Shown: positions 13,731 through 34,183 of the stretch, one piece after another
How positions within the stretch are numbered: position 1 is the first letter of the stretch
Layout: every line of letters begins with the position of its first letter
Sequence record: PZ445446.1
Length of the DNA stretch: 64,000 nt
Source: a phage
Reading direction: 5' to 3' (one strand)
Program-made: the position numbers and the translations under genes
The notes under the pieces: model-generated
Seen by the model: only the letters and a program-made list of their open reading frames with translations
Database searches by the model: none
What the model was told of the DNA's origin: nothing

Positions 13731-14030
13731 ATGTTTATCCAGGCTAATAATCTTTATTTCTTTGATGGTCAGATCGTAGACGGCGTGGAGGTGGAAATCA
13801 CCGGGTGCCCTGGCGGTCAGGTTATGACTTTTCGGAATAATGCCTTTGATGATTCTCATATCGTTATGAGAATGGAAGTTAGTAAGCTGGATGACAAGAA
13901 AACACTTATCGACTATTCCGTCAAAGATCATCCAGACTACCACATGATCTATGGTGATTTGTGCATTGTTGACCGTGACAAGGTGGGCGGCATTGTGATC
14001 GCTATTGTGAACGATGTTTTCTCAAACTAA
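13731..14030 (+). CDS. hypothetical protein
   Basis: ATG at 13731 with aaaaaggagtaatgatc SD (track start 13710). Confidence 0.45.
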   Translation: MFIQANNLYFFDGQIVDGVEVEITGCPGGQVMTFRNNAFDDSHIVMRMEVSKLDDKKTLIDYSVKDHPDYHMIYGDLCIVDRDKVGGIVIAIVNDVFSN

Positions 14031-14047
14031 TTTCAGCAGGTGATTTT

Positions 14048-14398
14048 ATGAAAGTAAAACTATATTACCTTAATGAGCTTAACCCCCTTGCCCAGGTCCG
14101 CGCCCTGGCTAATACCTTGATTTGTGAGAAATCTGTATATTGTGTTGAGCTTAACGCCATGCGTGAACGTCTCAAAGGTGGTTACTTTGACATCCATGCT
14201 GCAATCAACGGCCTGAATATGGAATTTATCCGCTTACGTAACAGCCGCCAGAATCTGGCAAGAATGGAACAAGATCCGGCCCACCTTCGTAAGCTGGTTA
14301 TTGAAAATCATCTGATGTTTAATGCCGATGGTGATTATTACCATTTTCACCGCAAACGCTGGTACCGTGGCGGCAATACAGGCAAGAATGCAAAATAA
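14048..14398 (+). CDS. hypothetical protein
   Basis: 116 aa ORF; weak SD; hairpin plus T-tract after stop. Confidence 0.45.
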   Translation: MKVKLYYLNELNPLAQVRALANTLICEKSVYCVELNAMRERLKGGYFDIHAAINGLNMEFIRLRNSRQNLARMEQDPAHLRKLVIENHLMFNADGDYYHFHRKRWYRGGNTGKNAK

Positions 14399-14599
14399 GG
14401 CCCCAGGCAGGGCCTGCAGCGATATAATCACATAAAGGCTATGCGGTTGCATGGCCTTTATTATTTTAGCGTTACAGCGGCCCCAAGGCGCTTAAAAAAT
14501 TTTTAAAGAAGTACTTGCATCAAGTCCTACAATATGGATAATAGGACGTGTCAGGGGGGCGGCCCCCAATCATTAACCGGATAGATAGGAGTTAAAATC

Positions 14600-14884
14600 A
14601 TGGCTATTGTCACCGTTGGCGATGTAGTGGAAATGGAAGCAAAATACTTAAAAGCGGGTATGCATATCCTACGGAATGATCAAGAATTGTTATTAACGAT
14701 GGTAGACTATAATCCCGGCCAGGATTATCCAAGCATCGACTACTTTTTTGAGTATGTTGATGAAGAATTGAAAGAGGATGAGGCTTATCAGGGTGAATTC
14801 TGCAATTTCTTTTGCCCTGATGAGGTTGTAAAAGTTATCTATCAACCTGGAGTACCTTTCCCGCTGCACGCTATCAATAAATAA
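14600..14884 (+). CDS. hypothetical protein
   Basis: 94 aa ORF; TTGCAT/TAATAG promoter-like, GC hairpin ggggggcggccccc, ataggag SD. Confidence 0.45.
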   Translation: MAIVTVGDVVEMEAKYLKAGMHILRNDQELLLTMVDYNPGQDYPSIDYFFEYVDEELKEDEAYQGEFCNFFCPDEVVKVIYQPGVPFPLHAINK

Positions 14885-19010: not shown

Positions 19011-20458
19011 AGTTTTCCTCCTCTTTGTCAAGTGCTGCATGAAAAATTTACAAGCTTGTATGGTAGCATTTTTGCGGCCCTGTTTACATTCAGTGTTGTA
19101 TGTATAATCCTTGTTGTGTGGGCGTTTAGACGTCTGGACGGTCAGAAGTTTGCAGGTCAATATCTAATCTATTGGCTGCTAACTATATCCCCCACAAATA
19201 ATAAGAAATATAATTGTTATGTGCGTAAACAGTAACCCATGTTATCAATCCCTGTATGTATCGCCAGTGGTGCGCATAATGGGTATTATGTTAAATTGCC
19301 CGTAATGATAACAGTTCTCACAATGATAGGTATTCTCATTCATCCACACAAAATAGGTTGCAAATGTTGTGCCACTGTGTGAACGGCCTGGCCTATTAAT
19401 TTCTCTCACTGCCTCGATATTTGAGAATTGTTATAAGAATGAGAAGTATTCCCATTCCGTCCGCCTGGCAGCACTCCAGTAGCTACCGGCTCCTGACAGG
19501 GCAGCACTCCTGTAGGTCAGGTCAAAATCGTGGTAGAATTGGGCCTGTTCAGATATTTCTGACTGACTCTTCAGATCTGTGTGGGAAAAGCCAACCTCTC
19601 CGGAGGGGCAGGGGAGGTCAATTAAAAAATTTACGTGGTGTATGAAGCGCTCTTCAGGTAAGGCATGTATTATGGGATGAAACCCTCTTCAGGCAATGAT
19701 ATTTGTGGGTGTGATATTTGCTGGAAAGCCAGATATGACGGGACTCCCGGCGGGGATGGGGTAGTACAGACAGGGAAAATATGGGGATGTAGTTGGGTAA
19801 ATTGATCAGACAGGTAGAGTATGGAATATGTTACAAGTATGTTAAATAGGGAGGATGAATATCTGCAGGATTTGTGTGTAAAATCAAAGACTTAAGTGGT
19901 GTTGTGGTATTTTCTATAAATAATTCAAGTTTAATAGGTAATATTTGTCTCTATCCACTTTGTGTGGTAAACAGATTCAGATGAAATTGGTTTACAAGTG
20001 TATACATAATATACAAATTAAAGATACAAGAAACCCCCCTCCCCCTTCGGCTACCATTCACCTTTTCCTCTGACTGGTACTTAAACACTTATTCAGACTC
20101 TTCAGGTTATCACCCATATATCATATGGCAGTGACTGGTGTCCTCCGGCCCCTCTTTCGTCACCCGTCCGCTTCGCCATGCTAATGCCATAGCCAATGGT
20201 TCGGTTGTTCACTCTGTTCACTCAGGTGTATCTCCATACCCCTTCAAACCGAAGAGAACAGAAAACCCGAATTACTCGGTAAAAGAAAAGAGAAGAACTT
20301 AATTTTATCAGGATAGGCAAGAATGTCAAGGCATGACTGCTCACTAAACAAGCAAACAGTCATGTGTGGAAGGTAAGTGATTGTGGTGGTGGGAAATTTA
20401 GTTGAAAGATGTGTTATAGGTGCGCTTCCAGCACTTTGGCCGGGCAGCTAATTGTGTG

Positions 20459-20674
20459 TCAGTCCAGCGGTTCATCCTCTACTTCACTGAAATCAATGTT
20501 CATGGTCTCCTCCCAACCATCGATCTCAGCACAAGAGTGGAGTTCTTTAGGGTTTACTCCCAAAGCCTCAGCAACAGAGTCTATATTTAACACCTCTGGC
20601 AGGTATGATTCATCGAATTCAAGGTAAATCAGGCCACGAGTGTTGTCAGCTCCACCAAATATCTCTATCTTCAT
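20459..20674 (-). CDS. hypothetical small acidic protein
   Basis: 71 aa ORF; distal gene of the leftward block. Confidence 0.4.
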   Translation of the reverse strand: MKIEIFGGADNTRGLIYLEFDESYLPEVLNIDSVAEALGVNPKELHSCAEIDGWEETMNIDFSEVEDEPLD

Positions 20675-20795
20675 GAAATCTCCTCTGGAAATGAGAGTGT
20701 GAACAGGGTTTTATACGTTCTAATGCACAGGAATTATACACGTTTGCCTCTTCAGGCCATGCTTTAGCATGAGGAACCTGTGTGGGCTCGGTGCT

Positions 20796-21008
20796 TCATA
20801 GTCTACCACCTCTGAACTCTTCGTGCTCAGGCATAATAGAGAACCAGATATCTACGATGTCCTCCCACGTCAGGTCATCAGCCTCAGGATCTGTCTGGGA
20901 CGAAGATGAAGAGTCCTCAGAATCTAAGTTTTCCTCTTTAACTGGCTCATCCAAGGGACATATGGTCACTCCTTCGGATGTCTCTTCAGATGCATGTGTG
21001 TTGATCAT
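20796..21008 (-). CDS. hypothetical small acidic protein
   Basis: 70 aa ORF, Ser/Asp/Glu rich. Confidence 0.35.
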   Translation of the reverse strand: MINTHASEETSEGVTICPLDEPVKEENLDSEDSSSSSQTDPEADDLTWEDIVDIWFSIMPEHEEFRGGRL

Positions 21009-21368
21009 GTTCCCCCCGTGAGTATTCCGGCAACAGCCGCTATGGAAGTAATGATCATCAGGATCACCACTAAAACTTCAGACAATGTTCTCATTGTATA
21101 TTCCATATTCTCCAAACTGTGTGTGGATACTATCACGGGAGCGGTAATGTGTCAACAGCAACGCCGCGAGGGTTTGGTTAAAATCCGAGCGTATGGTGAT
21201 TTGGGTCAAAACGGACGTGCGTTCTCGCTACGCTCGAAAGAGAGACTTGTTTGTAGAAAGCTCTTAAACGCTCTGTAACGAGATTATCTGTCCAAGGTAT
21301 GCAATCGTGCACCAGATAAAGAAAAGGACGCCACAGAGCGTCCTAGGTGTCTTAAATTTGATATTTTG

Positions 21369-21680
21369 CTATACCCATGAGGGCTTATCAAGGTTGGAGT
21401 AGCTGAAAGGTGTCAAAAGGTGACTGTCAAAATCCCTCAAACTATCCAAATCTTTTTCCTCGTCCTGACACCATCTGTGCCTACATTTATTGTTGTAGTG
21501 CATAGAATGCATAGCGTTCTGCAACTTAACAGGTACAAGTGATTCAGGAGTAGATAGTATTGTTGGGTATGCCAGAATCACCTCAAACAGTGGAAACACA
21601 TCGAAACTAAAGTCTATCTCTGCAGAGGTTGATGGCATATAGGAGTATTTAGCCGCCTTTGTAGACATAATCCACCTCAC
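21369..21680 (-). CDS. hypothetical protein
   Basis: 103 aa ORF; 4-nt overlap with upstream gene. Confidence 0.4.
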   Translation of the reverse strand: MRWIMSTKAAKYSYMPSTSAEIDFSFDVFPLFEVILAYPTILSTPESLVPVKLQNAMHSMHYNNKCRHRWCQDEEKDLDSLRDFDSHLLTPFSYSNLDKPSWV

Positions 21681-22003
21681 ACAGGTTTGATAATACCTTT
21701 ACCGAATAATTCTTCGTATCTAATCTTATCCGGATCCCACTCTTGGATAATTTCGAAGACAATATCCAACCCAGGGATAATCACTTCTCCAGTGTCAAGT
21801 TTGGCAAGAACAAAACCAGAAGGCTGAATGGTTTCCCAGTTGCGCCGATTGGAATAGAAGACCTCGAAAATATCGCCGACCTTTATCTGTTGATCAAGAT
21901 GTTCAAGATTCTCTTTCATATAGACGCAGCGGATTTTTCGTGCAGGCCAGAGACCACCTGCATCACGTTCATTTAGCTCTTTTACAGTAATCGGTATACC
22001 CAT
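21677..22003 (-). CDS. hypothetical protein
   Basis: 108 aa ORF; SD-like gaaggag upstream. Confidence 0.45.
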   Translation of the reverse strand: MGIPITVKELNERDAGGLWPARKIRCVYMKENLEHLDQQIKVGDIFEVFYSNRRNWETIQPSGFVLAKLDTGEVIIPGLDIVFEIIQEWDPDKIRYEELFGKGIIKPV

Positions 22004-22058
22004 CTCAAATCTCCTTCATAGATAGTAAAAAGAGGGGCCCAAGCCCCCCTCTTTGTCA

Positions 22059-22364
22059 TTATTCTACAGAGCGTTTGAACAGAATGTCTGCCTCAGACAT
22101 GTGCTCAACCTCTTCTTCGATTTTAGCGCGACGTTTTTCAGCCTCATAGCGAATATCGAACTCGGTAGCCACCAGAGATTTGATGAATTTAGGAGAATAC
22201 AGGTGATCCTGCTTCTCAACGAGAATGATATCCTTAATGGCATCTTTCAGATCTTTAATCTGAAGTTGGAGTTCTACCAGTTCTTCGATTGTTTTGCGAA
22301 GGCGATCACGCTCTGCAGTGTCAGAAGGAAGAGAGGTGAACAGTTCAACTTTAGATTTAGCCAT
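22059..22364 (-). CDS. hypothetical coiled-coil protein
   Basis: 101 aa ORF; charged heptad-like sequence. Confidence 0.45.
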   Translation of the reverse strand: MAKSKVELFTSLPSDTAERDRLRKTIEELVELQLQIKDLKDAIKDIILVEKQDHLYSPKFIKSLVATEFDIRYEAEKRRAKIEEEVEHMSEADILFKRSVE

Positions 22365-22392
22365 AGTAAGAGTCTCCTTATGTTGTTTTAAA

Positions 22393-22644
22393 TTAACGTT
22401 CTACAAAAATACCGTTCAGTTCAATAACCAGGAATTTCTGGTCTTCACTATCGTCTCGTGCCAGCACCTCACAGACGTATCGGTCATCCCCATCATCATC
22501 GCAGTCAAATACAAGACTGAGGACTTTATCATGGTAAACCTTCGCCACTACCGCCTCGTAAGTATTGCCGATTGTGAATCCAAGATAATCTCCGATGCAT
22601 TTGACAACAACATGGTCTCCAGCATTTAAGTCAATCTTCGTCAT
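22393..22644 (-). CDS. hypothetical protein
   Basis: Start moved to internal ATG at 22644, which has aaggagcgcagta SD; DDDGDD acidic stretch. Confidence 0.4.
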   Translation of the reverse strand: MTKIDLNAGDHVVVKCIGDYLGFTIGNTYEAVVAKVYHDKVLSLVFDCDDDGDDRYVCEVLARDDSEDQKFLVIELNGIFVER

Positions 22645-22799
22645 TACTGCGCTCCTTGGGTAATAATACTGTATGTAAAACTTTAACCAGAGATGTGAAT
22701 AACGCCCCAAAACACACCGATAGCGCTAAAACAGACAAGGCCATCATTAAAGCTTCAGTAAAATCAGTCATTCCTCACCTCTTGTTAGTCACTGTACTA

Positions 22800-23063
22800 T
22801 CATTTATCCTTGTCGTCAAGAACTTTTTTAAATCTTTCAGGGATATCTCCCGTTCTTAGATAGTTCATGACCTCGCAAGGTTCCCACTTGAATTTCTTAC
22901 AGAGCAGGGCGGCTGAGATTGTTTCATTGCGAAAAGAAAGGATATTAATATCCCACTCTGAGAACCCCAACTTCCGAAGGGTAGCTACAGAAATCCTCAC
23001 CGCAACCCAGCAGCAAAAACATGCAACAAACGCCACTGCTACAACCCACATCAGGATGTTCAT
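22800..23063 (-). CDS. putative membrane protein
   Basis: 87 aa; N-terminal hydrophobic helix. Confidence 0.4.
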   Translation of the reverse strand: MNILMWVVAVAFVACFCCWVAVRISVATLRKLGFSEWDINILSFRNETISAALLCKKFKWEPCEVMNYLRTGDIPERFKKVLDDKDK

Positions 23064-23152
23064 ATAAGCACCTTACTGAAATACAAGACACAGTGTTAAG
23101 GTTACTGACCAGCAAATAATTAACAGTGCCGTTGCAACCTTTGCAAGATTTA

Positions 23153-23440
23153 TCATAGTGCCTCTAAGATTTCATATCCTTCGGGTCGGAATACAAGCCA
23201 CTCCGTGGCTCCGTTTGGTCGATACGCTTTATACAGAACAACCTGGTCTCGGCACATGCACATGGCTACATAGTTTTCATCCACACCTGCAGCCTGCATT
23301 GCATCTTCTTCTCCGGCAACTGCTTTGCTTACAACTTCCTTGGTAGGCAGGTGTGCGATCAGCTCGTCACCATCATTAATTCCAAAATGGCTGAGTTCGC
23401 CGTTGGTATCTTTAATCTTAATCTTAACCAGATCTTTCAT
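23153..23440 (-). CDS. hypothetical protein
   Basis: 95 aa ORF; stop/start overlap with upstream gene. Confidence 0.45.
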   Translation of the reverse strand: MKDLVKIKIKDTNGELSHFGINDGDELIAHLPTKEVVSKAVAGEEDAMQAAGVDENYVAMCMCRDQVVLYKAYRPNGATEWLVFRPEGYEILEAL

Positions 23441-23769
23441 TAGTCTTCCCCCAGGTTCAAAGGTCCTAAGATTTCATATGCCAGATTAGAAGTTACAAGA
23501 GGGTCTTCTGCGTCTTTAGTATTATACCACCCGTGAATGACCAGAGTCCCACTTTGTTTCATGTCCAACTGGAACTCTTCTGCCGTTTCCTCATCCAGCT
23601 CCAAGATTTCCATAAGGTATTTGATGTTAGGGAGGTATGCAGCTGTTACAGTCCCCTCTACCAGACCTTCAGGCCAACCTACATCTGGATGACAAGTAGG
23701 AACCAGGTTGGTCAGCTTAATGGTGTACGCTTTTTCTGCACGAGCCTTCAGTAACGGGTCAATCTTCAT
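23440..23769 (-). CDS. hypothetical protein
   Basis: 109 aa ORF, translationally coupled. Confidence 0.45.
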   Translation of the reverse strand: MKIDPLLKARAEKAYTIKLTNLVPTCHPDVGWPEGLVEGTVTAAYLPNIKYLMEILELDEETAEEFQLDMKQSGTLVIHGWYNTKDAEDPLVTSNLAYEILGPLNLGED

Positions 23770-24119
23770 TATTCGTCCTCCTCTTCGGTACCTGCTTCCA
23801 GTAATAAGTTAAGAATATCTTCTGCACAAGGTTCATAGAACTCTTGGCCTTCATTATCGATGATTTTGTAGTCATCTCCACGAATAATCAGGGGATCACT
23901 ATCAAAATTATCGAGACCTTTAACAACGACAACACGATCGATTGCCATCATTGTAAGAACTTTATCGACATCTTCCTCTGCTACACCATACTGCAGCAGA
24001 ATGTCTTTGGTAGGAGGAACAGCATCCACCACAACGCCGTTACCAAAACCTTCTGGAAGTTTAGCTAAAATATCTTCCGGAACCACATTCACATCAAAAC
24101 CGGTAATTTCTACTTTCAT
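23769..24119 (-). CDS. hypothetical acidic protein
   Basis: 116 aa ORF beginning MKVEITG; acidic C-terminus. Confidence 0.45.
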   Translation of the reverse strand: MKVEITGFDVNVVPEDILAKLPEGFGNGVVVDAVPPTKDILLQYGVAEEDVDKVLTMMAIDRVVVVKGLDNFDSDPLIIRGDDYKIIDNEGQEFYEPCAEDILNLLLEAGTEEEDE

Positions 24120-24380
24120 TTACAGCACCTCTTCGTCAACTACTTCATAAAAATGGCCTGGGATTGCAATAGCGTTCTCACCTTCACCTACAAACACAGT
24201 TCCGTCAAGAATCAACATCATAAGAATTTCTGTAATATCCTCTTCCGGAACGTTGCCAAAACCTTTAATCAGCTCGTAGGTTGGAATATTTACCTCTAAG
24301 ATGTCACCATCTTTAGAACGGAAATCAACACCGTCCTGAATCTCTGCCGTTTCAAGGTTTTTCAATTTAATCTTCATCAA
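24120..24380 (-). CDS. hypothetical acidic protein
   Basis: 86 aa ORF beginning MMKIKLK; resembles 25544-25813 in start and C-terminal EVVDEE. Confidence 0.45.
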   Translation of the reverse strand: MMKIKLKNLETAEIQDGVDFRSKDGDILEVNIPTYELIKGFGNVPEEDITEILMMLILDGTVFVGEGENAIAIPGHFYEVVDEEVL

Positions 24381-24456
24381 TCGGTCCCCTGTCTTGTTAA
24401 GATGAAGGTATTATTTCACACAGGGTTGGCGTTGTCAACACCTGTGTGCAAGAAAA

Positions 24457-24852
24457 TTACTGAAACAGTGCGGATAAATTACCTTCTGGTGGGAACTTAT
24501 CTGCCAAAAACGGTGTTAGCACAGTAGCCTTCTGAAGATCTGGGGTCCACTCGTTGTTCAGAACATCCCAGTAGTACGCAATGTTGCTGTGTGGGTGCCG
24601 CATTACGAACTTTTTCCCTTCGTAGTCATCTGAAACCTCTACAGAAGAAATAACAACAGAATCTTCAAGGGTTTCTTCATAGAAAGATCCACCTTCAAAT
24701 TTCCAACGAGATGCAAGAGCCCCTGCCTTGAACGCTGCAGATAACGGACTGTCGGCAAGAACATACATTTCTTGCACTCTGTCGCTGCGATCTTTGCTTC
24801 TTACGTTGTATACAGTATCTGAGCTATACTCAACACGGTATAGGCTTACCAT
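24457..24852 (-). CDS. hypothetical protein (paralogue of 26659-27057)
   Basis: 131 aa; shares HP(H/D)S...YW...W(T)P motif with ORF 26659-27057. Confidence 0.45.
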   Translation of the reverse strand: MVSLYRVEYSSDTVYNVRSKDRSDRVQEMYVLADSPLSAAFKAGALASRWKFEGGSFYEETLEDSVVISSVEVSDDYEGKKFVMRHPHSNIAYYWDVLNNEWTPDLQKATVLTPFLADKFPPEGNLSALFQ

Positions 24853-25211
24853 TACCGCACCTCCTCAATAACTTCCACATCTGAACCTACCACAAATGCA
24901 AAAGGACAGGTTTCATGAAAGATATCCGGATCGCCGCCAAGCTTGCTAACAATTTCTCCACCACTAATAAACACAAGCTCACCGATATTCATCAGATTGC
25001 TGAAATAGTACCCATAATGATTAAAGAATGCAGCAGGGTCAGGTAGACTAGTAGCCTCAAGCACTACATCAGTTGAGGTTACTTTCTTATCATAACCTCT
25101 CGCCTTTTGAGATGCAAGATCTGCAGAATCCTCAGGCGACCGGAGATGCACAGGAATTGTTTCACCAATAAAGCGTACTTTCATATTATCACCCAACAAC
25201 CATAGCTTCAA
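24852..25211 (-). CDS. hypothetical protein
   Basis: 119 aa ORF; start may be the internal Met at MKVRF. Confidence 0.4.
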   Translation of the reverse strand: MKLWLLGDNMKVRFIGETIPVHLRSPEDSADLASQKARGYDKKVTSTDVVLEATSLPDPAAFFNHYGYYFSNLMNIGELVFISGGEIVSKLGGDPDIFHETCPFAFVVGSDVEVIEEVR

Positions 25212-25452
25212 AAGGGGTCATGAACGAATAAACGGCATCATCATCTGCTTCAGGGAATGCTCCCAAAGACTTCATGTCTGAGCCCTTGACAAATACAAGG
25301 TTTTGATCAAAAGCTTCTTGAGGATCAATCCGATACATATTTCGTAGAATATCGCCTACCTCCTCATCAAGAGGTGAGTATGCTGTGCACGTTTTTCCGA
25401 TCAAGCTTTGAGAATCAGGGTATCCACCTGAAGTTTTAAAATAAACAATCAT
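25189..25452 (-). CDS. hypothetical protein
   Basis: 87 aa ORF overlapping downstream gene. Confidence 0.4.
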   Translation of the reverse strand: MIVYFKTSGGYPDSQSLIGKTCTAYSPLDEEVGDILRNMYRIDPQEAFDQNLVFVKGSDMKSLGAFPEADDDAVYSFMTPFEAMVVG

Positions 25453-25543
25453 ATAGTATCACCTCTGGTAAGAGATTGGGATTCCTTTCCCACAAATAAT
25501 TACAAACCTTCCTTATCGAGGAAGTATGCTAATCCAAGCAAGA

Positions 25544-25813
25544 TTATTCCTCTACAATCTCATACACATCCGGAGTTACAATCAACTCTTCTCCGTTACC
25601 CGGTGCAACAAACACCACCATGCCTTCAGGTGTGTGCTTTTTAGCCATCTCGATAACATCTTCTCGCAGAGCTGGCTCCATCAGATCAAAACCTTCACCC
25701 AGGGCATCACGAACCACCTTCATATAGTCAACTGGTTGTGCTTCGACAATCATACCTTCAACCAGTCCACAGTTTTTGTCTGCCAGCTCAGTTTTGAATA
25801 ATTTAATTTTCAT
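25544..25813 (-). CDS. hypothetical acidic protein
   Basis: 89 aa ORF beginning MKIKLFK. Confidence 0.45.
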   Translation of the reverse strand: MKIKLFKTELADKNCGLVEGMIVEAQPVDYMKVVRDALGEGFDLMEPALREDVIEMAKKHTPEGMVVFVAPGNGEELIVTPDVYEIVEE

Positions 25814-25950
25814 TTAGAGGCCTCCTCAATTATTTGATATTAATAGCCGTAACCTAACACATTAACTACAACTGCGATTGCAAACATAATTTCAAAGCAT
25901 GCAATCTCTACATTTGGGACTAATTTCTTGATCACACCCATTGTAGCACC

Positions 25951-26268
25951 TCATTCTCTAAAGTCAATCTTTACTTTGCCTTTCCCCTTACCTTTCTTTC
26001 CACCGCATTTAGCCAGTTGACGTGCTGCAACATCTACCATACGGTCAGTTGCCTCGTAAGCATCACTGCCTTTAGCTTTGGCAATAACTTCTTTTCCAGA
26101 ATTGTCAAAAATGAACGCCATAACTTCCTGGTGATCATTTTCAACTTTTACACTCACACGTGCATAGTTGGCAGAGGGATGCAAACGCTCCAGCTTAGAC
26201 ATTTTGTGGGAAATGAAAGACACCATACCTTCAGTGATTTCTACGTTGCCAGTGATTTCAATTTGCAT
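25951..26268 (-). CDS. hpf: ribosome hibernation promoting factor / RaiA (YfiA) family homologue
   Basis: 105 aa; N-terminus MQIEITGNVEITEGM matches the HPF/YfiA start (MQLNITGNNVEITEAL in E. coli HPF); shared KLE, VKVE, G-D-Y-A-D and ARQL positions; lysine-rich tail; aagga SD. Confidence 0.65.
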   Translation of the reverse strand: MQIEITGNVEITEGMVSFISHKMSKLERLHPSANYARVSVKVENDHQEVMAFIFDNSGKEVIAKAKGSDAYEATDRMVDVAARQLAKCGGKKGKGKGKVKIDFRE

Positions 26269-26350
26269 AACGTGTTCCTTTTAAAGAAGAGGGAACCAAA
26301 CCCTCTTTGAAAACAATGATACTAAATCTGAAGCGTTGTGTCAACAGTTT

Positions 26351-26641
26351 TTACAGATTGTTGTCGATAGTTTTTAAAATATCCACAGCAAGATCTGCCA
26401 TTTTTCGAACATACTCTGCAAACTCAACAGGATCCTTGATCAAAGAATTCACAGGGTCGTACCCTAGAGCGTTCAAAATGGCTGCAGCATCTACAACCTT
26501 CTCATCATTTGCGAAGATCTCTCCATCAAACTTGTAGGTCCATTTTGAGTCAATCTTGGCAGGGAATGATTGGTCAACGCTTGTTACACCATCCTTTTTA
26601 AACGCTCCGGTGTTATCAGTGTCTAGAACTAAATCCATCAT
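26351..26641 (-). CDS. hypothetical protein
   Basis: 96 aa ORF. Confidence 0.45.
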   Translation of the reverse strand: MMDLVLDTDNTGAFKKDGVTSVDQSFPAKIDSKWTYKFDGEIFANDEKVVDAAAILNALGYDPVNSLIKDPVEFAEYVRKMADLAVDILKTIDNNL

Positions 26642-26658
26642 GTTAGTACCTCACCGTT

Positions 26659-27057
26659 TCAGTTTAGCTTTTCTTCAACAACCCCATAGCTCGGGACAGA
26701 GTCAAGAGCTTTCTGGTTTAAAAGTGGTGTAGCAGAATCTGCAAACGGTGTCCAAGTTTTTGTTCTGGCGTTCCAGTAATGCTTCACTCTGGAATCTGGA
26801 TGCACTATAACAAAAACTTTTTCACTTGTCAACACATTAATTTCTTCCACACCCCTGCTGATAATTTCTCCGTCATATCCCCCGGTCTGGTATCCTTCGT
26901 ACCAGGTTCTTGCATAGGCATAGCCAGCCTGCCAGCATGCAGCCTCCTCCGAGGTGGAGACTACGTAGAAGTCTTTCTCAAATTCTGGGATACGCCCTTG
27001 CTTTACGCTCCAAGCTCCGCGAATTTTCATTGTAACTTTGAATAGTTTATTTTTCAC
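26659..27057 (-). CDS. hypothetical protein (paralogue of 24457-24852)
   Basis: 132 aa; shared motif with ORF 24457-24852. Confidence 0.45.
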   Translation of the reverse strand: MKNKLFKVTMKIRGAWSVKQGRIPEFEKDFYVVSTSEEAACWQAGYAYARTWYEGYQTGGYDGEIISRGVEEINVLTSEKVFVIVHPDSRVKHYWNARTKTWTPFADSATPLLNQKALDSVPSYGVVEEKLN

Positions 27058-27069
27058 AACGGTTACCCA

Positions 27070-27324
27070 TCACAGTTCTACAATATCTGCATCTGACCCT
27101 GCCCCAAAGGCATAATAGGACTCTTCCCCGAAATAATATTCCGGTGCACCAGCAGCGATCAGGTCTGATCCCAAAATGAATACCACGTTGTGGCCTACAT
27201 AGCTGTGATTTTGCCGCACAGGATCATCCCACGGCAACCCTTCGAAGTATACCGCAGGGACGACCTTTCCTTTCAGGAAGGATTGCCCCAAGTAGACGTT
27301 AGAATCAAGAATTTTAACCTTCAT
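27070..27324 (-). CDS. hypothetical protein (DLIAAGA family)
   Basis: 84 aa beginning MKVKILDS; shares MKVK-LD and DLIAAGA motifs with 27314-27541 and 30955-31188. Confidence 0.45.
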   Translation of the reverse strand: MKVKILDSNVYLGQSFLKGKVVPAVYFEGLPWDDPVRQNHSYVGHNVVFILGSDLIAAGAPEYYFGEESYYAFGAGSDADIVEL

Positions 27325-27541
27325 GATCGTCCTCCACTATCTCTACATCCTCACCTAGGGCAAAGTTGTAGGTCCACTGACTGTCAAAGCATTCCTGAGA
27401 TGCACCAGCGGCAATAAGATCTGCCCCTTTTATTTTTAAAAGGTCAGGGTAATCTTCGTTAGGGACAGCAGTAAACACTTTCCCTACTAAAGGCTCCTGA
27501 CCAATATAGAAGCTTGAATCTAAAACTTTAACTTTCATCAA
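27314..27541 (-). CDS. hypothetical protein (DLIAAGA family)
   Basis: 75 aa paralogue of adjacent gene. Confidence 0.45.
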   Translation of the reverse strand: MMKVKVLDSSFYIGQEPLVGKVFTAVPNEDYPDLLKIKGADLIAAGASQECFDSQWTYNFALGEDVEIVEDDHEG

Positions 27542-27825
27542 CGGTCTCCATCAGGTGGTTGTGGGACGTAAACACTGTTACGAATATCGTCCGCAGTATA
27601 GTAATAAGTGTCTCCAACCCTATCTCTGGCTGCAATGTACTCTGCTATACCAATAAGTGCCATTGATTTGGTGGCGTATCTTCCCCACTCGTTAGCTCCC
27701 CAGTAGAATTTAGACCAGTAGGGAATAATACCGAACAAATATACCTTTTGACGAACTTCCCAGTAAGTGCCTTTTCCGACAAGTTTAAACTCTACTTCAC
27801 TACTGTTAATCTTTTTCATTATCAA
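27538..27825 (-). CDS. hypothetical protein
   Basis: 95 aa ORF, 4-nt overlaps on both sides. Confidence 0.45.
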   Translation of the reverse strand: MIMKKINSSEVEFKLVGKGTYWEVRQKVYLFGIIPYWSKFYWGANEWGRYATKSMALIGIAEYIAARDRVGDTYYYTADDIRNSVYVPQPPDGDR

Positions 27826-28118
27826 TCTCCCTCTACCGTGGTCGGATTGTCAGTAAGAAATTGAGCATTGGCTGGAGGCACGCCTGACATTTTCCACACA
27901 ACCATAAGTTTGTAACCAGGAACTCTATTAAGTGCAGATCGAGTAGAGTTTGTGCACGTATACTTTCGCTTTCCAAACCCGTTCTCCATCATAATCCAGT
28001 ACCCAGTATCTTTGTCACCAGGTATCGGTAGACCACCTTCATCAACCCACTGAATGGACCACGGCACGATGGCTACAGCTTTATATTTAAACTTTTTAAA
28101 CCACTCAAAAAGTTTCAT
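27822..28118 (-). CDS. hypothetical protein
   Basis: 98 aa ORF. Confidence 0.45.
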   Translation of the reverse strand: MKLFEWFKKFKYKAVAIVPWSIQWVDEGGLPIPGDKDTGYWIMMENGFGKRKYTCTNSTRSALNRVPGYKLMVVWKMSGVPPANAQFLTDNPTTVEGD

Positions 28119-28213
28119 AATTCAGCCTCGCATAGACATAATCACTATAAACAGGCAAACAATGAATCCGAATGCCACGCCACCCATAAACGTTAATATT
28201 GATGCAATCATAG

Positions 28214-28477
28214 TCAATCAGCCTCGCTTGGCAACTCTTCTACCTTAACATGCCGAAAAGTGTTACCGTAATGGTTGATCCATGACATCAGCTCGCTTTC
28301 TTGCTCTTCCTCTGGGATGAACTCTCGAATGCTGACAAGTTTTAAGAAAACCCAATCACAATCTGCACCCATTCTACCAGACAGGCAATAGTGCTTCATA
28401 AAAACCCCCCCACCTGGTTTAGAATATTGCTTCTTCCATTGCACCTGAGAGCAACAAAGAGGTGATCTGGCTAACAT
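28214..28477 (-). CDS. hypothetical protein
   Basis: 87 aa ORF. Confidence 0.4.
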   Translation of the reverse strand: MLARSPLCCSQVQWKKQYSKPGGGVFMKHYCLSGRMGADCDWVFLKLVSIREFIPEEEQESELMSWINHYGNTFRHVKVEELPSEAD

Positions 28478-28613
28478 TCATCTCAGACTCTACTTCCTCC
28501 CCTTTGAAAGGTTCGCGGCAGAATAGGACTGTTTCAGGACTTTTACTTCGAACAGTATAATACAAATCATTCAATGTGTTGTAGTAATAAGTGTTAAAAC
28601 GTAAGTTTTTCAT
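28419..28613 (-). CDS. hypothetical small protein
   Basis: 64 aa ORF overlapping neighbour by ~59 nt; weakest of this cluster. Confidence 0.3.
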   Translation of the reverse strand: MKNLRFNTYYYNTLNDLYYTVRSKSPETVLFCREPFKGEEVESEMNVSQITSLLLSGAMEEAIF

Positions 28614-28897
28614 TTTCTAGTCCCCTTCTTAGATTTTTGTGTAGAAACGCTTTCTGCAATACGAGACAAACGTTCTTCTGAAGCCTTGCCTATTCCAGGT
28701 TTTTTGAGTGGGTTATCTTTATGACCACAATCCAATTGGATATTGGATACCTCTCCAACCTTGTAAGTCAATTCTAGCAAAAGGTTGTCGTCCTTGTCAA
28801 ATGTTCTTACGATAAATTTTTTATCGTTCTCCTGAACTTCGTATCGGGTACCCGCAGTATACAGCATGGTGCCATCCGCATAGGATATCCAGATCAT
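28610..28897 (-). CDS. hypothetical protein
   Basis: 95 aa ORF, translationally coupled. Confidence 0.4.
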   Translation of the reverse strand: MIWISYADGTMLYTAGTRYEVQENDKKFIVRTFDKDDNLLLELTYKVGEVSNIQLDCGHKDNPLKKPGIGKASEERLSRIAESVSTQKSKKGTRK

Positions 28898-29241
28898 TGA
28901 ACCTCCTTCTGCTGCAACAGCATTAACTCTTTGTTGGAGATTTTTACTGCTGTTTTTATTGTTCCATCTTCACGAAACCACGACCAGAACTCTACAGTGT
29001 CCCCACTGTCAAGCAAAGCATACCCGTGGTAGAAGTCTTTGTCCTTAGACAGTTTCTCATCTATGTCTGCATCGACACATTCGTGATCCATAGCATTTTG
29101 CCTGAATGCATCGGTTATACCAATGCACGCCTTGCTCTCAAGACTGGTATATCCGATATCTTTTAATTCAGTTTCCCAAGTCCAGTACCCTATAAAAGCT
29201 AAAACAGCTACCCACATTAATAACGTTTTAATCTTTGGCAT
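28894..29241 (-). CDS. putative membrane-anchored or secreted protein
   Basis: 115 aa; N-terminal hydrophobic segment LLMWVAVLAFIGYWTW. Confidence 0.4.
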   Translation of the reverse strand: MPKIKTLLMWVAVLAFIGYWTWETELKDIGYTSLESKACIGITDAFRQNAMDHECVDADIDEKLSKDKDFYHGYALLDSGDTVEFWSWFREDGTIKTAVKISNKELMLLQQKEVQ

Positions 29242-29303
29242 TCTCTCTACCTCTTTCTTAGTTTATTTCACTATGGCACATCCTTTGTGCCATATCTCAA
29301 CCA

Positions 29304-29765
29304 CTACTTAAATAGTAGTCCAAAATAGTGCAAAATTAACAGAAGTTGAACTACACCTAGTGCAACGGCGAGTATGTTAATCTTAGAATCGAAAAACTTC
29401 TTAACTTTTACTCTAAAAGGTTCCTTAATGTCCTTTACGATCCTATTTATAGATGATTTCATATCCCTGATTACCATCCTAAACATTAGAGACGGATCTT
29501 CCTTCTCTGTAATAGAATCGAAAACATACTCTCTTCGGTCATAAGGACCTCCAGATCTGCGTATTAACCTCTCCACAGAGACCTCGTACGACACACCTGT
29601 AACGTAATCATCTATGATAAGTAGTGACGGGTCTTTATCGTCCAAGGGTATTAAAGTTATCTTTCCAGATTTTGTTAAAATTTCTCCTTTTTCAAGCAAG
29701 GTGTACCAATGCTCTCTACCAAGATTGTTGAGGCACGTTTTTACATATTTAACAAACATCGTCAC
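29304..29765 (-). CDS. hypothetical protein with C-terminal TM helix
   Basis: 153 aa; C-terminal ILAVALGVVQLLLILHYFGLLF. Confidence 0.45.
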   Translation of the reverse strand: MTMFVKYVKTCLNNLGREHWYTLLEKGEILTKSGKITLIPLDDKDPSLLIIDDYVTGVSYEVSVERLIRRSGGPYDRREYVFDSITEKEDPSLMFRMVIRDMKSSINRIVKDIKEPFRVKVKKFFDSKINILAVALGVVQLLLILHYFGLLFK

Positions 29766-29965
29766 CCCTCATCGCACGTCTGATATAACCACTCTATGAA
29801 ATCTTGATACCATTCGCCCTCTGAGCGCTCCGTAGGCCAATAATCTTCACCCTCTCGTGCATTAAAATCTGAGTATTCAACTTTCCACTCCTTTACCAGC
29901 TCGTGGAGAAGGTTTTCAGCCTGCTCTAAAGATTTATTTTTTGCCATTGCTGTCTCCTTTTTCAA
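29762..29965 (-). CDS. hypothetical small protein
   Basis: 67 aa ORF; start possibly the internal Met at MAKNK. Confidence 0.4.
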   Translation of the reverse strand: MKKETAMAKNKSLEQAENLLHELVKEWKVEYSDFNAREGEDYWPTERSEGEWYQDFIEWLYQTCDEG

Positions 29966-30166
29966 GATAGTTATACATCAGAACTGCACCACCTAAGATG
30001 GCTACCAGTAACAATATCCCAGATAGCATCTCAATAAACATGGCTTGAAACACTGGAAGGTCTCCCTAAATTAACGCACCATTTTAAATACATGCTCTTT
30101 TCCCATAAAGGTGCCTGGCTAAGATCTGCGTAGAACGCAATCTCTTTAAGAACAGTATAGATAGTT

Positions 30167-30394
30167 TTAGGTGCGGTCTCCATCCCTACTCTCCTTCCTG
30201 ATATTCTTGTAGTAATCAACTAGGCACATTATTACGATGAAGATAACAACAGGCCAAAAAGGTGCAGCAGTGATGATGGTGATAAAATCATCAAACTTCA
30301 CCCTTCGTCTGGACACGATGCATACACCTGTCAAGAATACCGCTGTTATAACGGACATTACCAGGTAACCTATTAGCACAACATTTATACTCAT
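30167..30394 (-). CDS. putative membrane protein
   Basis: 75 aa, two hydrophobic helices. Confidence 0.4.
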   Translation of the reverse strand: MSINVVLIGYLVMSVITAVFLTGVCIVSRRRVKFDDFITIITAAPFWPVVIFIVIMCLVDYYKNIRKESRDGDRT

Positions 30395-30424
30395 TGGTCC
30401 TCCCTTTGTAGGTTAAATTGTATA

Positions 30425-30958
30425 CTACAAATGGTCGCTGAGGGTGTCAAGAAAATTATCCCGTTCTTTCTCAGAGTTTTCATGTGTGTAGCTGAAAAAC
30501 ATATCGAGAATAACCTTATTGATATATTCCAGCTCCTCTGTGTTCAGATGCTTAGCAGGATCTACAATGACATCCCAAATATCATACAGACCACACTCAT
30601 GATACCCATAACGCCACTCAATTGTCAAGCTGAGCGGCAAATCTTTACCTTCACAAACAACCTTCCATCTACATATGTTGGTATCTGGTCGTACCTGTGC
30701 ACGGTAAACCTGCACAAAATCCAATTTGAATTTGAGGTACTCGTCATACAATTTAAGCACAAAGCTCTCGATTTGTGGAGACACTTTTGCAGCAAACTGT
30801 GCGTATTTGTACTTGCACTGGATGATCTTTCTACGTTTTGCAGTTAAATTTTTTGCCGCCAGTTGTTCTTCAGTGTATCTCCACCTACGATCAACAAACG
30901 CAACAGGGTCTTTGTCCCCATAGAGGTCTTCCCAGTTAATCAGAAGCATACCTGTCAC
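30425..30958 (-). CDS. hypothetical protein
   Basis: 177 aa ORF. Confidence 0.45.
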   Translation of the reverse strand: MTGMLLINWEDLYGDKDPVAFVDRRWRYTEEQLAAKNLTAKRRKIIQCKYKYAQFAAKVSPQIESFVLKLYDEYLKFKLDFVQVYRAQVRPDTNICRWKVVCEGKDLPLSLTIEWRYGYHECGLYDIWDVIVDPAKHLNTEELEYINKVILDMFFSYTHENSEKERDNFLDTLSDHL

Positions 30959-31188
30959 TCCTCCACAACTTCAAGGCCTTTACCGCCTCGCTCTGGCAGA
31001 TTACTTAAAGATAGGTAATACATATAATCAGGAGAGATCCTGCCAGACTCTGCACCTGCAGCTAGTAAATCCTTCCCTTTAACCAGGACAACATTCTCGT
31101 TTGCAGATAGCCGTTTTGCTTCCACAATTTTACCAACACAGTCAACCAAGGAAGGGTACCCTAAATCTGTAAGAAATTTAACTTTCAT
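30955..31188 (-). CDS. hypothetical protein (DLIAAGA family)
   Basis: 77 aa beginning MKVKFLTD with DLLAAGA motif. Confidence 0.45.
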   Translation of the reverse strand: MKVKFLTDLGYPSLVDCVGKIVEAKRLSANENVVLVKGKDLLAAGAESGRISPDYMYYLSLSNLPERGGKGLEVVEE

Positions 31189-31225
31189 GCTACCTCCTAC
31201 CTACCGTCCCTGGTAAGATAAATTA

Positions 31226-31624
31226 TTACTGAACAGAGCGCGGTGCTGGGAAGGATAACTCTTCTAAAGAGAAGATTTCATTTCCTACCACCCAAGTTGC
31301 TGGGTCATCTGGATCAACAGGTTGGATAATCATTACCTCATCCGCCTCGCACACACGTTTCCCACCCATAGTAGCGTCAGCCACTAACATACGCGGCTCT
31401 TCAGAAATGCACAGGTAGCCACCTCGGCCCACTGTTCCTTCCACGGGATCCTGCCCTTTGACCACAATGAATACCTTCTCTCCTGTGGCGATATTACTTT
31501 TCACACTAACAGTTTGACCAACTTTAGATGTACCGATCTTGGTGGCTTCAAACATTAAATCCCGAATTACTGTTGCATAGTTGCCGGACACTTTCTTACC
31601 TTCTTTAGTAATCTCAATCTTCAT
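31226..31624 (-). CDS. hypothetical protein
   Basis: 132 aa beginning MKIEITK. Confidence 0.45.
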   Translation of the reverse strand: MKIEITKEGKKVSGNYATVIRDLMFEATKIGTSKVGQTVSVKSNIATGEKVFIVVKGQDPVEGTVGRGGYLCISEEPRMLVADATMGGKRVCEADEVMIIQPVDPDDPATWVVGNEIFSLEELSFPAPRSVQ

Positions 31625-31893
31625 AATCTAGGCTCCTTAAATGAATCTATGTAATCAATTAAATCCCAAGCATCCCTATGACCTGTCAGAGGGTATACTT
31701 CTCCAAGAGGGATCATAGCAATAAGTCTATCAAAAACCCAATCTGGACGCAACATTTTATGGTGATACTCCCACTCACCTTCTACAGACTTTTTCTGAGT
31801 GATCAGGATCTCTGTGTAGTGTTTCGCCTGTCTTGAGTAGATTGAGAATGACTTGTACATAAATGGCCCCCTCTTGTTGAAAACAAAATACAC
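31621..31893 (-). CDS. hypothetical protein
   Basis: 90 aa ORF. Confidence 0.45.
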   Translation of the reverse strand: MYFVFNKRGPFMYKSFSIYSRQAKHYTEILITQKKSVEGEWEYHHKMLRPDWVFDRLIAMIPLGEVYPLTGHRDAWDLIDYIDSFKEPRL

Positions 31894-31895
31894 TA

Positions 31896-32249
31896 CTACC
31901 AGGTCACTGTCAAGTAGGCAACTGTGTTATTTTTCTCCGGAGAGATGCCAACAACATCCACCTGCAGACCTCCTGCCCTCAAATCCCCAACAATGTGTGG
32001 GAAGTAGTCTGAGAGGTGTGATGGGAGATTTATCGAAAATCCACATCCCAGAAAGCCTGCTAACGCTTTATTTTGTATCTCCCCAACAATCGCATCATAA
32101 ATAGAGTTAAGCTCGTCAGGAAGCGTTACAGGACGTTTTAGCGCTAACTGGTGCAACTTGTCCTTAGCACTCATTTTCATTTCAAGTCTGCCTCTGGTGG
32201 TGCCAACCACATAAATGGCGGCAAGTCTAGACGGTTTTTCTTGTCCCAT
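31896..32249 (-). CDS. hypothetical protein
   Basis: 117 aa ORF; true start probably the internal Met near 32180 to avoid overlap with the methyltransferase. Confidence 0.35.
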   Translation of the reverse strand: MGQEKPSRLAAIYVVGTTRGRLEMKMSAKDKLHQLALKRPVTLPDELNSIYDAIVGEIQNKALAGFLGCGFSINLPSHLSDYFPHIVGDLRAGGLQVDVVGISPEKNNTVAYLTVTW

Positions 32250-32710
32250 ACAAAATATGCATATGCCTGCCCATCCGTTCTACCATTAGATTGGAATGAC
32301 GGACGCTTAGATATTGTGATCACAGTGGTAGGTGCATTATCAAGCCACCATTCAAATCTGGCCTTGCTTTCCAGAAAATTAAGACGCAAAAGCATAATAA
32401 CTACGTCGGCATCTTTCAACGCCTTGTCCACAAACTCACGAGCCAGGCTGTACGGCGGGTTGGTGATAATACAGTCAACATGGTTGTATTCTGTATTCAG
32501 ATAGTCAACACCTTCTTGGATTTCTCCCCATGCAGATCCTAACGGCATACGGGAGTAGAACACACCTGAGGCACTATTCCTGCAAGGCTCTAAGTAGGTC
32601 CAGTCTTCTGGGAACGGAATAAGGTCATACAGCCCTTCTGCACACCACTCCGGTGTCACATACTCATCGTAGGCGTTACGTTGTTCATCAGGTTTTCTAG
32701 CACAAGTCAT
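32177..32710 (-). CDS. DNA methyltransferase (small, NPPY-type, N6-adenine or N4-cytosine)
   Basis: 177 aa; catalytic motif IV IITNPPY. Confidence 0.55.
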   Translation of the reverse strand: MTCARKPDEQRNAYDEYVTPEWCAEGLYDLIPFPEDWTYLEPCRNSASGVFYSRMPLGSAWGEIQEGVDYLNTEYNHVDCIITNPPYSLAREFVDKALKDADVVIMLLRLNFLESKARFEWWLDNAPTTVITISKRPSFQSNGRTDGQAYAYFVWDKKNRLDLPPFMWLAPPEADLK

Positions 32711-32761
32711 GCAAATCTCCAGATCATAAAAGCCCTCCGAAGAGGGCTTTAGAATTAATGT

Positions 32762-33811
32762 TTAAGCTTCTTCGACAATTCCTGCACCCAGGATTTTTTC
32801 ATTGAGCTCTTTTGCTGTTTTAATAATATTGTCCACAAGACGCTTGCGAGTCTTATCTTTCACCTTAACCTCTTCACCGCCGTTCAGAGTAGTCTTCAAT
32901 TGAGACAGAATATCCTGAAGTTCAACGACAGAGAATCTCTGCAGATCTTCTGAAGTAATCTCACCCAGGGCAATTCGGACGGTCTCGCCACTTTCCATCT
33001 GCAGATTCAGGAACACAGTGTGAACATCACCTTTCGAACCACCCGCTTTTGCAGATTCAACAGCATGAACTAACTCATCTAAAGATGTGCACTGATGAAT
33101 CTCCGGAAGACCTGCTTCACCTAACACGCCTTCTTCATCACCTTTTGCCAGAAGCTTTTTCGGTTTTTGTCCGTTCTGGATGCGTTGTATGTTGCCTTCA
33201 TCCAGAATAATAGCTCCAGTGCGTGCTGCCAACTCTTCTCCGTCCAACCACACTTCGCCACCAGCTGTGATGGATGCGATCTCATCTTCTGTCAGCACCC
33301 CACCGTAGTATTTTTCGATCAGGTGTTCAAAACGTTTTTTCCAGTAGCTGACCTGAGTATTCATGTTAACACCGTTACCATAAGTGCCACCTTGATAGTA
33401 GTGGAACATAAATTCTGTGTCCGGAGCCACAGTACGTTCTTTGCAACCAAGCCATAAGATTGTTCCAGCAGAGCAGCACATCCCTTCAGCATGTGCAACA
33501 ACGCTTGCCTGAGACTCGCGGAATGCCTGCAGATAGGCCATTGCAATGTGCACGCAACCACCAGGGCTATTGATGATCACACGAATGCTTTCTTCCGGCT
33601 GAGCCATACGGATCGTCTGCAGACGAGACATATGATCCTGCAGGTCCTCCAAATCGTCGATATAAAGAACGTGGTCAACAACAGGTGTTGGGTAGCTGTA
33701 TGTTTCCATGATACCGCCCGGCATACCAAACATTTTATTACTCATAGGTTCGAAACCGTTCTGTTTTTCTTTCATGCCGTGTACCATGGTGCTGCGAGGT
33801 GTTAAATTCAT
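32762..33811 (-). CDS. ClpP-like serine peptidase with C-terminal extension
   Basis: 349 aa; VIINSPGG and G-x-CCSAG resemble ClpP YINSPGG and GQAASMG; ~150 aa extra C-terminal region. Confidence 0.55.
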   Translation of the reverse strand: MNLTPRSTMVHGMKEKQNGFEPMSNKMFGMPGGIMETYSYPTPVVDHVLYIDDLEDLQDHMSRLQTIRMAQPEESIRVIINSPGGCVHIAMAYLQAFRESQASVVAHAEGMCCSAGTILWLGCKERTVAPDTEFMFHYYQGGTYGNGVNMNTQVSYWKKRFEHLIEKYYGGVLTEDEIASITAGGEVWLDGEELAARTGAIILDEGNIQRIQNGQKPKKLLAKGDEEGVLGEAGLPEIHQCTSLDELVHAVESAKAGGSKGDVHTVFLNLQMESGETVRIALGEITSEDLQRFSVVELQDILSQLKTTLNGGEEVKVKDKTRKRLVDNIIKTAKELNEKILGAGIVEEA

Positions 33812-33871
33812 GAGAAATCCTTAATATTGGAAGTTGAAAGCTATTTATTTAAACCTGATTCACATTTACCT

Positions 33872-34183
33872 TTATTTAGCAATCACTATGGAGTACTTAC
33901 GATTGTCAGAAGCATCACAACTCAATGATTGCCAATCTACCACATACCACGTATCATTGTCAACAATTACTTTATCGCCTGTTCTGTAGCAAGTGCTGCT
34001 TTCAATAATTCGAGACTCGATAAAGAATCTGTGTCGGCGCTCACGTAGCAACGCTAAGTTGATTATATTACCACCGCTGTCCTTGATCCACACATTCTTG
34101 GATCCCTTATTTGCCAAAATTGTCTCGCCGTTATAGACAAACAGGCAGTATATTTTATTCAGTTTCTCTTGTATTGTAGCCAT
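33872..34183 (-). CDS. hypothetical protein
   Basis: 103 aa ORF. Confidence 0.4.
   Translation of the reverse strand: MATIQEKLNKIYCLFVYNGETILANKGSKNVWIKDSGGNIINLALLRERRHRFFIESRIIESSTCYRTGDKVIVDNDTWYVVDWQSLSCDASDNRKYSIVIAK

Follow-up and report, generated by a model that had tools for sequence, protein, structure and literature searches.

Sequence profiles point to three ancient paralogous families in a small-gene block of an rV5-like coliphage

The phage sequence record PZ445446.1, a 64,000-nucleotide stretch that we call the window, carries at positions 23153-31624 the block of small genes studied here. Profile-based comparisons show that 12 of its 29 genes can be traced to three ancient families, termed A, B and C, which expanded by tandem duplication (the C array) and by duplication of an A-A-B cassette. 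A first-pass annotation, made without database searches, had described recurring families in this block; the observation was correct in substance and is partly confirmed, the paralogy being wider than it stated. Our preferred explanation, to which we assign a probability of about 0.5, is that these genes encode conserved, partly dispensable early or middle accessory proteins, belonging to three old families and binding host factors.

The block and Escherichia phage WalterGehring (BASEL Bas51; genus Vequintavirus, rV5-like) share 99.7% identity. Of the 121 phage records matched, 114 cover at least 80% of the block, and at least 80% of a wider query that includes it (22000-32000) is carried by 115 of 121 Vequintavirus records. 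The WalterGehring annotation of the interval lists 29 coding sequences (CDS), all on the minus strand: 27 are 'hypothetical', one is a 'ribosome hibernation factor' and one a 'putative glycosidase'. The first-pass count of about 35 small acidic proteins was therefore too high, and its description holds for the array and in part for the acidity. Our open reading frame (ORF) list gives a dense array of small minus-strand genes with products of 31-177 amino acids (aa), and the isoelectric point (pI) is below 5 in 15 of the 26 block ORFs of at least 40 aa, compared with 29% of those elsewhere in the window, a modest enrichment (Fisher p=0.01). Overall, roughly two thirds of the block's genes have acidic products, and nine of the 26 ORFs are neutral or basic, among them the HPF homologue described below and the central predicted membrane proteins. 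Searches of Pfam, NCBIfam and PDB sequences with all block proteins returned no match except HPF, and an Rfam search of 20000-34000 returned none. For comparison we used two divergent lineages that are syntenic with the window at 28-87% amino-acid identity: L007, a 124-kb contig (assembly GCA_034560175.1), and L011, a 138.7-kb metagenome contig from the Joint Genome Institute (JGI).

On profile evidence, family A has five members, namely three core genes, a divergent gene and the C-terminal half of a fifth product (genes are named by their first coordinate):

30955..31188, minus strand: family A, 77 aa; the paralogue nearest the lambdoid-prophage copies; phrog_5009 E=8.3e-36
27314..27538, minus strand: family A, 74 aa; gene 1 of A-A-B cassette 1; AlphaFold query; phrog_5009 E=9.7e-39
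27070..27324, minus strand: family A, 84 aa, with an insertion between strands 2 and 3; gene 2 of cassette 1; phrog_5009 E=4.7e-32
25189..25452, minus strand: divergent family A, 87 aa; gene 1 of cassette 2; phrog_5009 E=1.2e-4 (weak)
24852..25184, minus strand: divergent family A, 110 aa, of which only the C-terminal 40 residues align; gene 2 of cassette 2

The products of 27070 and 27314 are 42% identical over 83 aa (blastp E=6e-15; hhalign probability 99.7%), and 27314 matches 30955 at blastp E=1e-6. These three genes had been grouped in the first-pass annotation by an MKVK-LD...DLIAAGA pattern, and the grouping is upheld: the MKVKxL and DL(I/L)AAGA motifs are present, and all three match the phrog_5009 profile over its full length. 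The match of 25189 to this profile is weak. The 24852 product does not match the phrog_5009 profile; it is matched by our local A profile and by hhalign. A core A profile, built from the core groups together with prophage and other homologues, recovers 25189 (E=4.8e-5) and 24852 (E=2.4e-4), the next match lying at E=1.6, and the L007 orthologues score higher (3.7e-6 for the 25189 type and 6.6e-7 for the 24852 type). Subgroup comparisons by hhalign give the divergent links probabilities of 75-95%, with 25189 joined to the three core groups at 75-84% and 24852 to the 27070 group at 95.4% (E=1.7e-8).

In tblastn searches of deposited phages, families A and B were confined to Vequintavirus and absent, at that sensitivity, from other Vequintavirinae genera. 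Profile searches of 5.8 billion proteins add copies of A in lambdoid E. coli prophages (P0027, with 309 member sequences, mEp554 and mEp010), which lie among about ten small ORFs flanked by the Q antiterminator and the holin; P0027, a protein of mEp-type lambdoid phages, is 41-42% identical to 30955. A tandem pair of A genes is also present in an unrelated contig with an SU10-type capsid gene. These matches show that family A has also moved into lambdoid prophages and an SU10-type contig.

Family B has two members:

26659..27057, minus strand: family B, 132 aa, GTG start; gene 3 of cassette 1; phrog_7379 E=1.5e-73
24457..24852, minus strand: family B, 131 aa; gene 3 of cassette 2; phrog_7379 E=2.1e-66

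The two products share 28% identity over 119 aa (blastp E=1e-9), and both match phrog_7379 end to end (profile positions 1-131 of 131). The pairing of these larger proteins by an HP(H/D)S..YW..WTP motif, proposed at first pass, is thus borne out, and the motif is present. The GTG start of 26659 is supported because its N-terminus aligns with that of 24457. P0098 and P0099 were the only real distant relatives in a search of 1.84 billion representatives, and P0098, a distant 24457 orthologue, has the corresponding position in L007. P0101-P0103 were rejected as spurious, repetitive proteins matching the YYW motif; an hhalign match between 26659 and 30425 was discarded, having come from a deletion chimera of phage EduardKellenberger (Bas59) inside the orthologue alignment; and ORF 8068-8358 of L007 was rejected as a diverged B gene. 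Profile searches found neither family B nor family C outside rV5-like lineages.

Family C, for which the argument leans most on profiles, comprises five members, listed here with a gene that had been counted with them:

25544..25813, minus strand: family C, 89 aa; parted from the C array by cassette 2; leave-one-out E=2e-5
24120..24377, minus strand: family C, 85 aa; sequence used for the AlphaFold model
23769..24119, minus strand: family C, 116 aa with an acidic C-terminal tail; leave-one-out E=1e-7
23440..23769, minus strand: family C, 109 aa with an N-terminal extension; leave-one-out E=8e-5; joined from all three seeds
23153..23440, minus strand: family C, 95 aa; leave-one-out E=5e-8
31226..31624, minus strand: 132 aa; not family C; separate family phrog_5748

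Single-pair statistics are weak in this family (phmmer E=1e-5 for 23769 and 24120, and 1e-3 to 0.02 for the others), and each gene falls in a different PHROG. We ran iterative profile searches on 932 six-frame ORFs with the L007 and L011 orthologues added. Three seeds converged on the same closed set of 14 proteins, consisting of the five genes above and their orthologues, and the next match was at E=0.33. When one group at a time was left out of the C profile, all five groups came back from the 932 ORFs as top non-training matches (E=5e-8 to 7e-3), and the 25544 orthologues scored 2e-7 and 3e-6. The MKIK/MKIE family of the first-pass annotation therefore stands for 23769, 24120 and 25544, had missed 23153 and 23440, and loses 31226, which has no significant match to any A, B or C profile and was never recovered in the iterative or leave-one-out searches. 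The rest of the WalterGehring genome holds no further A, B or C members.

The reading in which these similarities are shared composition or spurious ORFs, with no real paralogues behind them, would draw on the marginal pairwise scores of family C and on MK- starts, which are common in this genome and therefore no evidence of homology. We consider its chances practically nil. Cross-validated profiles recover every left-out group, PHROG assignments agree for A and B, the AlphaFold2 models are confident, the ratio of nonsynonymous to synonymous substitution rates (dN/dS) is well below 1, and orthologues are syntenic in divergent phages. An all-vs-all alignment gave significant pairs within A and B, and C was confirmed by the profile searches; across the window, all-vs-all blastp of 465 ORFs gave four paralogue pairs at E<1e-3, three of them inside the block.

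Tandem paralogues were also observed outside the block. Genes 137-391 and 395-727 on the plus strand (35% identity over 77 aa, E=8e-9) head nine consecutive small acidic proteins (pI 4.1-4.4) at 137-4613, and ORF 137-391 has a weak family C profile match (E=0.02). Beyond the window, WalterGehring L015 11813-12339 (MZ501111 51712-52238) contains another small tandem family: of three consecutive 264-nt genes, two are clearly paralogous (39% over 82 aa, E=9e-10).

Along the direction of transcription, the family genes are arranged as A (27314), A (27070), B (26659), another gene, HPF, another gene, C (25544), A (25189), A (24852), B (24457) and four further C genes. The A-A-B triplet thus occurs twice (permutation probability about 0.001), which indicates a segmental duplication. 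The link of 24852 to 27070, its nearest relative and the gene at the matching position of the other triplet, fits duplication of a three-gene cassette. The local duplication noted at first pass is accordingly real, and more extensive than had been stated. A DNA repeat search found no meaningful repeats and no nucleotide similarity left between paralogues, so the duplications are ancient. L007 retains a 24457-type B gene and L011 a 26659-type one, which places both B types before the split of the three lineages. The window and L007 each have the HPF gene and the second A-A-B cassette; L011 has neither, and its 25544-type gene adjoins the other C genes.

Public data also contain recombinant or collapsed paralogues. 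P0001 is a 27314/27070 hybrid gene, and such cases point to unequal crossing-over that is still ongoing; P0036 and P0041 are deletion chimeras joining 27070 or 26659 to 26351. The 26351 gene itself (26351-26641, minus strand, 96 aa), the acceptor in these two independent chimeras, shares the peptide DS(K/Q)WTY(K/N)F with the family A member 27314, and a 27-nt repeat (78% identical) lies at 26527-26553 in 26351 and at 27361-27387 in 27314. It may be an A-gene relic or a recombination hotspot.

Compared with phage Aya (about 91% identical), dN/dS is 0.04-0.22 in all 12 family genes, similar to the values of the ClpP-like protease and the methyltransferase, which each give 0.04. The 12 genes are real, constrained by purifying selection and not fast-evolving. 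The three core A genes have elevated synonymous divergence (dS 0.8-1.4) without elevated dN/dS, which suggests an exchange of alleles.

Two natural deletions, an HPF homologue and two promoter-like sites bear on what the block might do:

26745..30552, no strand: segment missing in phage EduardKellenberger (Bas59); dispensable on E. coli K-12
27883..29729, no strand: segment missing in phage MaxBurger (Bas54); natural isolate
25951..26268, minus strand: HPF/RaiA-type ribosome hibernation factor homologue, 105 aa, basic; PF02482 E=1.8e-12
26316..26344, minus strand: sigma-70-like promoter, 11/12 positions, in the gap upstream of the HPF gene; annotated there in phage Gotham
24410..24438, minus strand: sigma-70-like promoter, 11/12 positions with an extended -10, in the gap upstream of the C array; annotated there in Gotham

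Bas59 lacks 15 block genes, and the only family genes hit are 27070, 27314 and 26659. In the laboratory, the phage can do without at least two A genes, one B gene and some 12 neighbouring genes. Bas59 plates normally, and its plating efficiencies on 11 defence systems are the same as those of the intact Bas58; the only difference concerns EcoPI, on which Bas58 gave no plaques and Bas59 gave none to about 0.001-0.004, that is, no worse (PMC8594841 S1 Data). This result covers 27070, 27314 and 26659, and the remaining paralogues could compensate.

The embedding of an HPF homologue among the families, reported at first pass, proved correct: the gene matches the Pfam Ribosomal_S30AE profile (PF02482) at positions 1-83 of 88 with 48.3 bits against a cut-off of 23.7, and BASEL records annotate it as a ribosome hibernation factor. 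The block sits toward the 3' end of a long minus-strand gene run, from about 57400 down to about 20200, where the run meets plus-strand genes. In the rV5 genome paper, genes 82-163, nucleotide-metabolism genes included, are proposed as one transcription unit, E. coli-type promoters occur throughout the genome and paralogues go unmentioned (PMC3606486). We infer that the minus-strand run of the window is this proposed unit.

Gene content at the block differs between lineages. In L007, a P22-type gene (10467-10763; PF27050, Phage_P22_Y8K6) occupies the promoter-bearing gap that corresponds to 24381-24456 of the window, which points to gene exchange with temperate P22-like phages. In L011, a TnpB gene (13532-14644; OrfB_IS605/Cas12f-like) is inserted in the corresponding small-gene region. 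A T5orf172/MUG113 gene was also seen in L011, at 1657-2556 between PhoH and ClpP.

Local duplications of this kind had been read at first pass as a host-takeover or anti-defence arsenal, a label that is still conjectural. An anti-defence arsenal would consist of acidic paralogues inhibiting immune systems, as DNA mimics or sensor decoys, and duplicated to cover several of them. Its appeal lies in the small acidic products, in an accessory and partly dispensable location, in the lineage-specific content with its P22-type gene and TnpB insertions, and in the slot between Q and the lysis genes that family A fills in lambdoid prophages; the sigma-70-like promoters in the gaps suit host takeover and anti-defence alike. 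The low dN/dS (0.04-0.22) and near-universal presence in the genus argue against it, as do the age of the paralogues, which have no DNA similarity left, and their conservation in divergent lineages. In the BASEL study the Vequintavirinae were found to be 'exceptionally susceptible' to restriction-modification (RM) systems (PMC8594841), Hachiman is effective against the rV5-like phage EdH4 (PMC10925250), and Bas59 and Bas58 share their efficiency of plating pattern on the 11 systems (PMC8594841 S1 Data). Searches of the general libraries Pfam, NCBIfam and PDB sequences, with no dedicated anti-defence HMM collection among them, linked none of A, B and C to known anti-defence families (Ocr, ArdA, Arn, other DNA mimics, anti-CRISPRs). 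An anti-defence role is thus possible and unsupported by selection, by genus-wide presence or absence or by the one natural deletion, and we consider it unlikely.

Strong conservation and purifying selection resembling those of core genes would suit a function internal to the phage or between phages, be it in its own replication, transcription or assembly or in superinfection exclusion. The PHROG of the 153-aa neighbour at 29304-29765 carries the annotation virion structural protein, and the prophage copies of family A stand at the start of the late operon. We nevertheless find such a function decidedly unlikely, since viable natural isolates have lost several of the members, tblastn, at its sensitivity, detects the families in no other Vequintavirinae genus, and there is no DNA-binding signature or basic surface.

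Structure prediction, which had been proposed as a check on the families, was carried out for A and C. The AlphaFold2 model of family A (27314; predicted local distance difference test, pLDDT, 92.3; predicted template modelling score, pTM, 0.80) consists of five strands and one short helix, to which the conserved GxDLIAAGA motif corresponds. The family C model (24120; pLDDT 83.4, pTM 0.72) has the same five-strand layout with two helices inserted between strands 2 and 3. Both were built from shallower alignments, with the L007 and L011 sequences left out. On these models, A and C (75-115 aa) would both be acidic five-stranded β-barrels of an SH3-like kind. Their predicted small barrel would be that of SH3-like and KOW domains (Spt5 KOW, PsaE, eukaryotic SH3, the retroviral integrase C-terminal domain).

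The best PDB matches of both models are SH3, KOW and PsaE domains (alignments of 47-59 residues at 2-3 Å), and the top-60 lists of the two models have more than 20 entries in common. Foldseek found no characterised relative: against BFVD, it returned only uncharacterised small proteins, mostly of phages of enterobacteria. Among them, an 87-aa protein of the rV5-like phage CM1 matches the A model (TM 0.79) and, judging from its length only, would be the 25189 orthologue. No A or C member has an SH3 or KOW match in Pfam at E<=0.1, and the A-C link by profile-profile comparison was rejected (hhalign probability 6.5%, not significant). The first strand MK(V/I)K, the second strand G-x-(V/I)-x-A and the last strand (Y/V)E(I/V)(V/L)E are features common to A and C, and their common origin is plausible.

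In its furthest form, this likeness would make the ten A and C genes one diverged acidic SH3/KOW-like superfamily and, with HPF, a module that binds ribosomal or transcription-elongation components and takes over host expression; we hold that extension to be improbable. We likewise see little chance that the KOW/SH3-like barrels and HPF act together on ribosomes or RNA to reprogramme host translation. HPF does lie between the families with a promoter of its own, and it occurs with the second A-A-B cassette in the window and L007 and is absent together with it from L011, a co-occurrence that covers three lineages only. A pI of 4.0-4.7 argues against direct RNA binding, and no HPF lies near the prophage and SU10-type A copies. 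Of the readings still open, a connection to translation, by way of the KOW-like fold and the HPF homologue among the families, is the most interesting.

We return to the explanation that we prefer, accessory proteins that bind host factors. The genes would be transcribed by host RNA polymerase from the sigma-70-type promoters, early or in mid-infection, and their products would be small binding modules with a stoichiometric action, sequestering or redirecting host proteins. A distinct partner may have been kept by each paralogue, with variable loops on a conserved barrel carrying specificity; the genes would then be subfunctionalised host-modulation genes and not a fast-evolving arsenal. Several points weigh against this proposal. 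The GxDLIAAGA helix, the most conserved element of A, is common to all A paralogues, which could mean one shared partner. The barrel fold is predicted for A and C only, not for family B. The Bas59 deletion has no detectable phenotype on the tested hosts and systems (PMC8594841 S1 Data), and the literature gave no functional data (expression timing, partners or phenotype) for any block gene.

Clusters of small 'host-takeover' genes of the early class are known from large virulent phages, with the SPO1 host-takeover module, the T4 early ORFs and the T5 pre-early genes as examples. T5 is discussed in PMC13250531. Like the block, these clusters combine many small genes annotated without function, host-type promoters, partial dispensability and acidic products. 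The block differs in that target and toxicity are demonstrated for none of its members, in that it lies toward the 3' end of a long proposed unit and not at the first-injected genome end, and in that paralogous expansion is unusually prominent (12 of 29 genes). A second parallel is the Q-to-lysis accessory slot of lambdoid prophages, a 'moron' hotspot, which is exactly where the family A homologues P0027, mEp554 and mEp010 are found. The prophage copies are single and 41-42% identical, whereas the rV5-like phage is a virulent myovirus with five copies. In PHROGs, phrog_5009 (A) and phrog_7379 (B) are of 'unknown function' and are matched end to end by the three core A and both B genes (E=1e-32 to 1e-73); 25189, 24852 and the five C genes are placed in separate single-lineage families (13920, 13661, 12794, 12457, 12155, 12359 and 11868). 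PHROGs attaches a function to none of these families, and the five-member A and C families and the A-A-B cassette links shown here have no counterpart in it.

Some observations concern the surroundings of the family genes. The central block part (27538-30394, minus strand), from which the natural deletion phages have lost genes, differs in encoding mostly basic or membrane products of 31-153 aa with hydrophobic segments. Among the small genes of the area, 22059-22364 (minus strand, 101 aa) is the best conserved (L007 87%, L011 73%); its rV5 annotation is 'transcriptional regulator', and it has further matches in Klebsiella myoviruses. Just downstream of it, at 22029-22054, is a hairpin resembling a terminator, called on both strands. 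Across the block, eighteen MG0656xx records that bear the name 'Campylobacter phage' share 96-98% identity with rV5-like coliphages, and either their host labels are probably wrong or the records contaminated. A seven-tRNA cluster lies at 61307-62119, within which ARAGORN calls a 99-nt tRNA-like gene with a four-base anticodon (atcc) at 61776-61874 (plus strand), to which it assigns no identity.

The rV5-like phages are among the most often isolated coliphages and are in therapy and biocontrol use, and nearly all of this block is annotated 'hypothetical'. With 40% of it falling into three families, two of them sharing one simple predicted scaffold, 12 unknowns become two or three tractable problems, for which natural mutants already exist in the deletion phages Bas54 and Bas59. 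Were A and C, with HPF, the improbable module considered above, they would form a new class of phage effector scaffold, shared with small proteins from many other enterobacterial phages and from phages of some other hosts (BFVD). That family A occurs in lambdoid prophages as well suggests that its function can pass between very different phage lifestyles.

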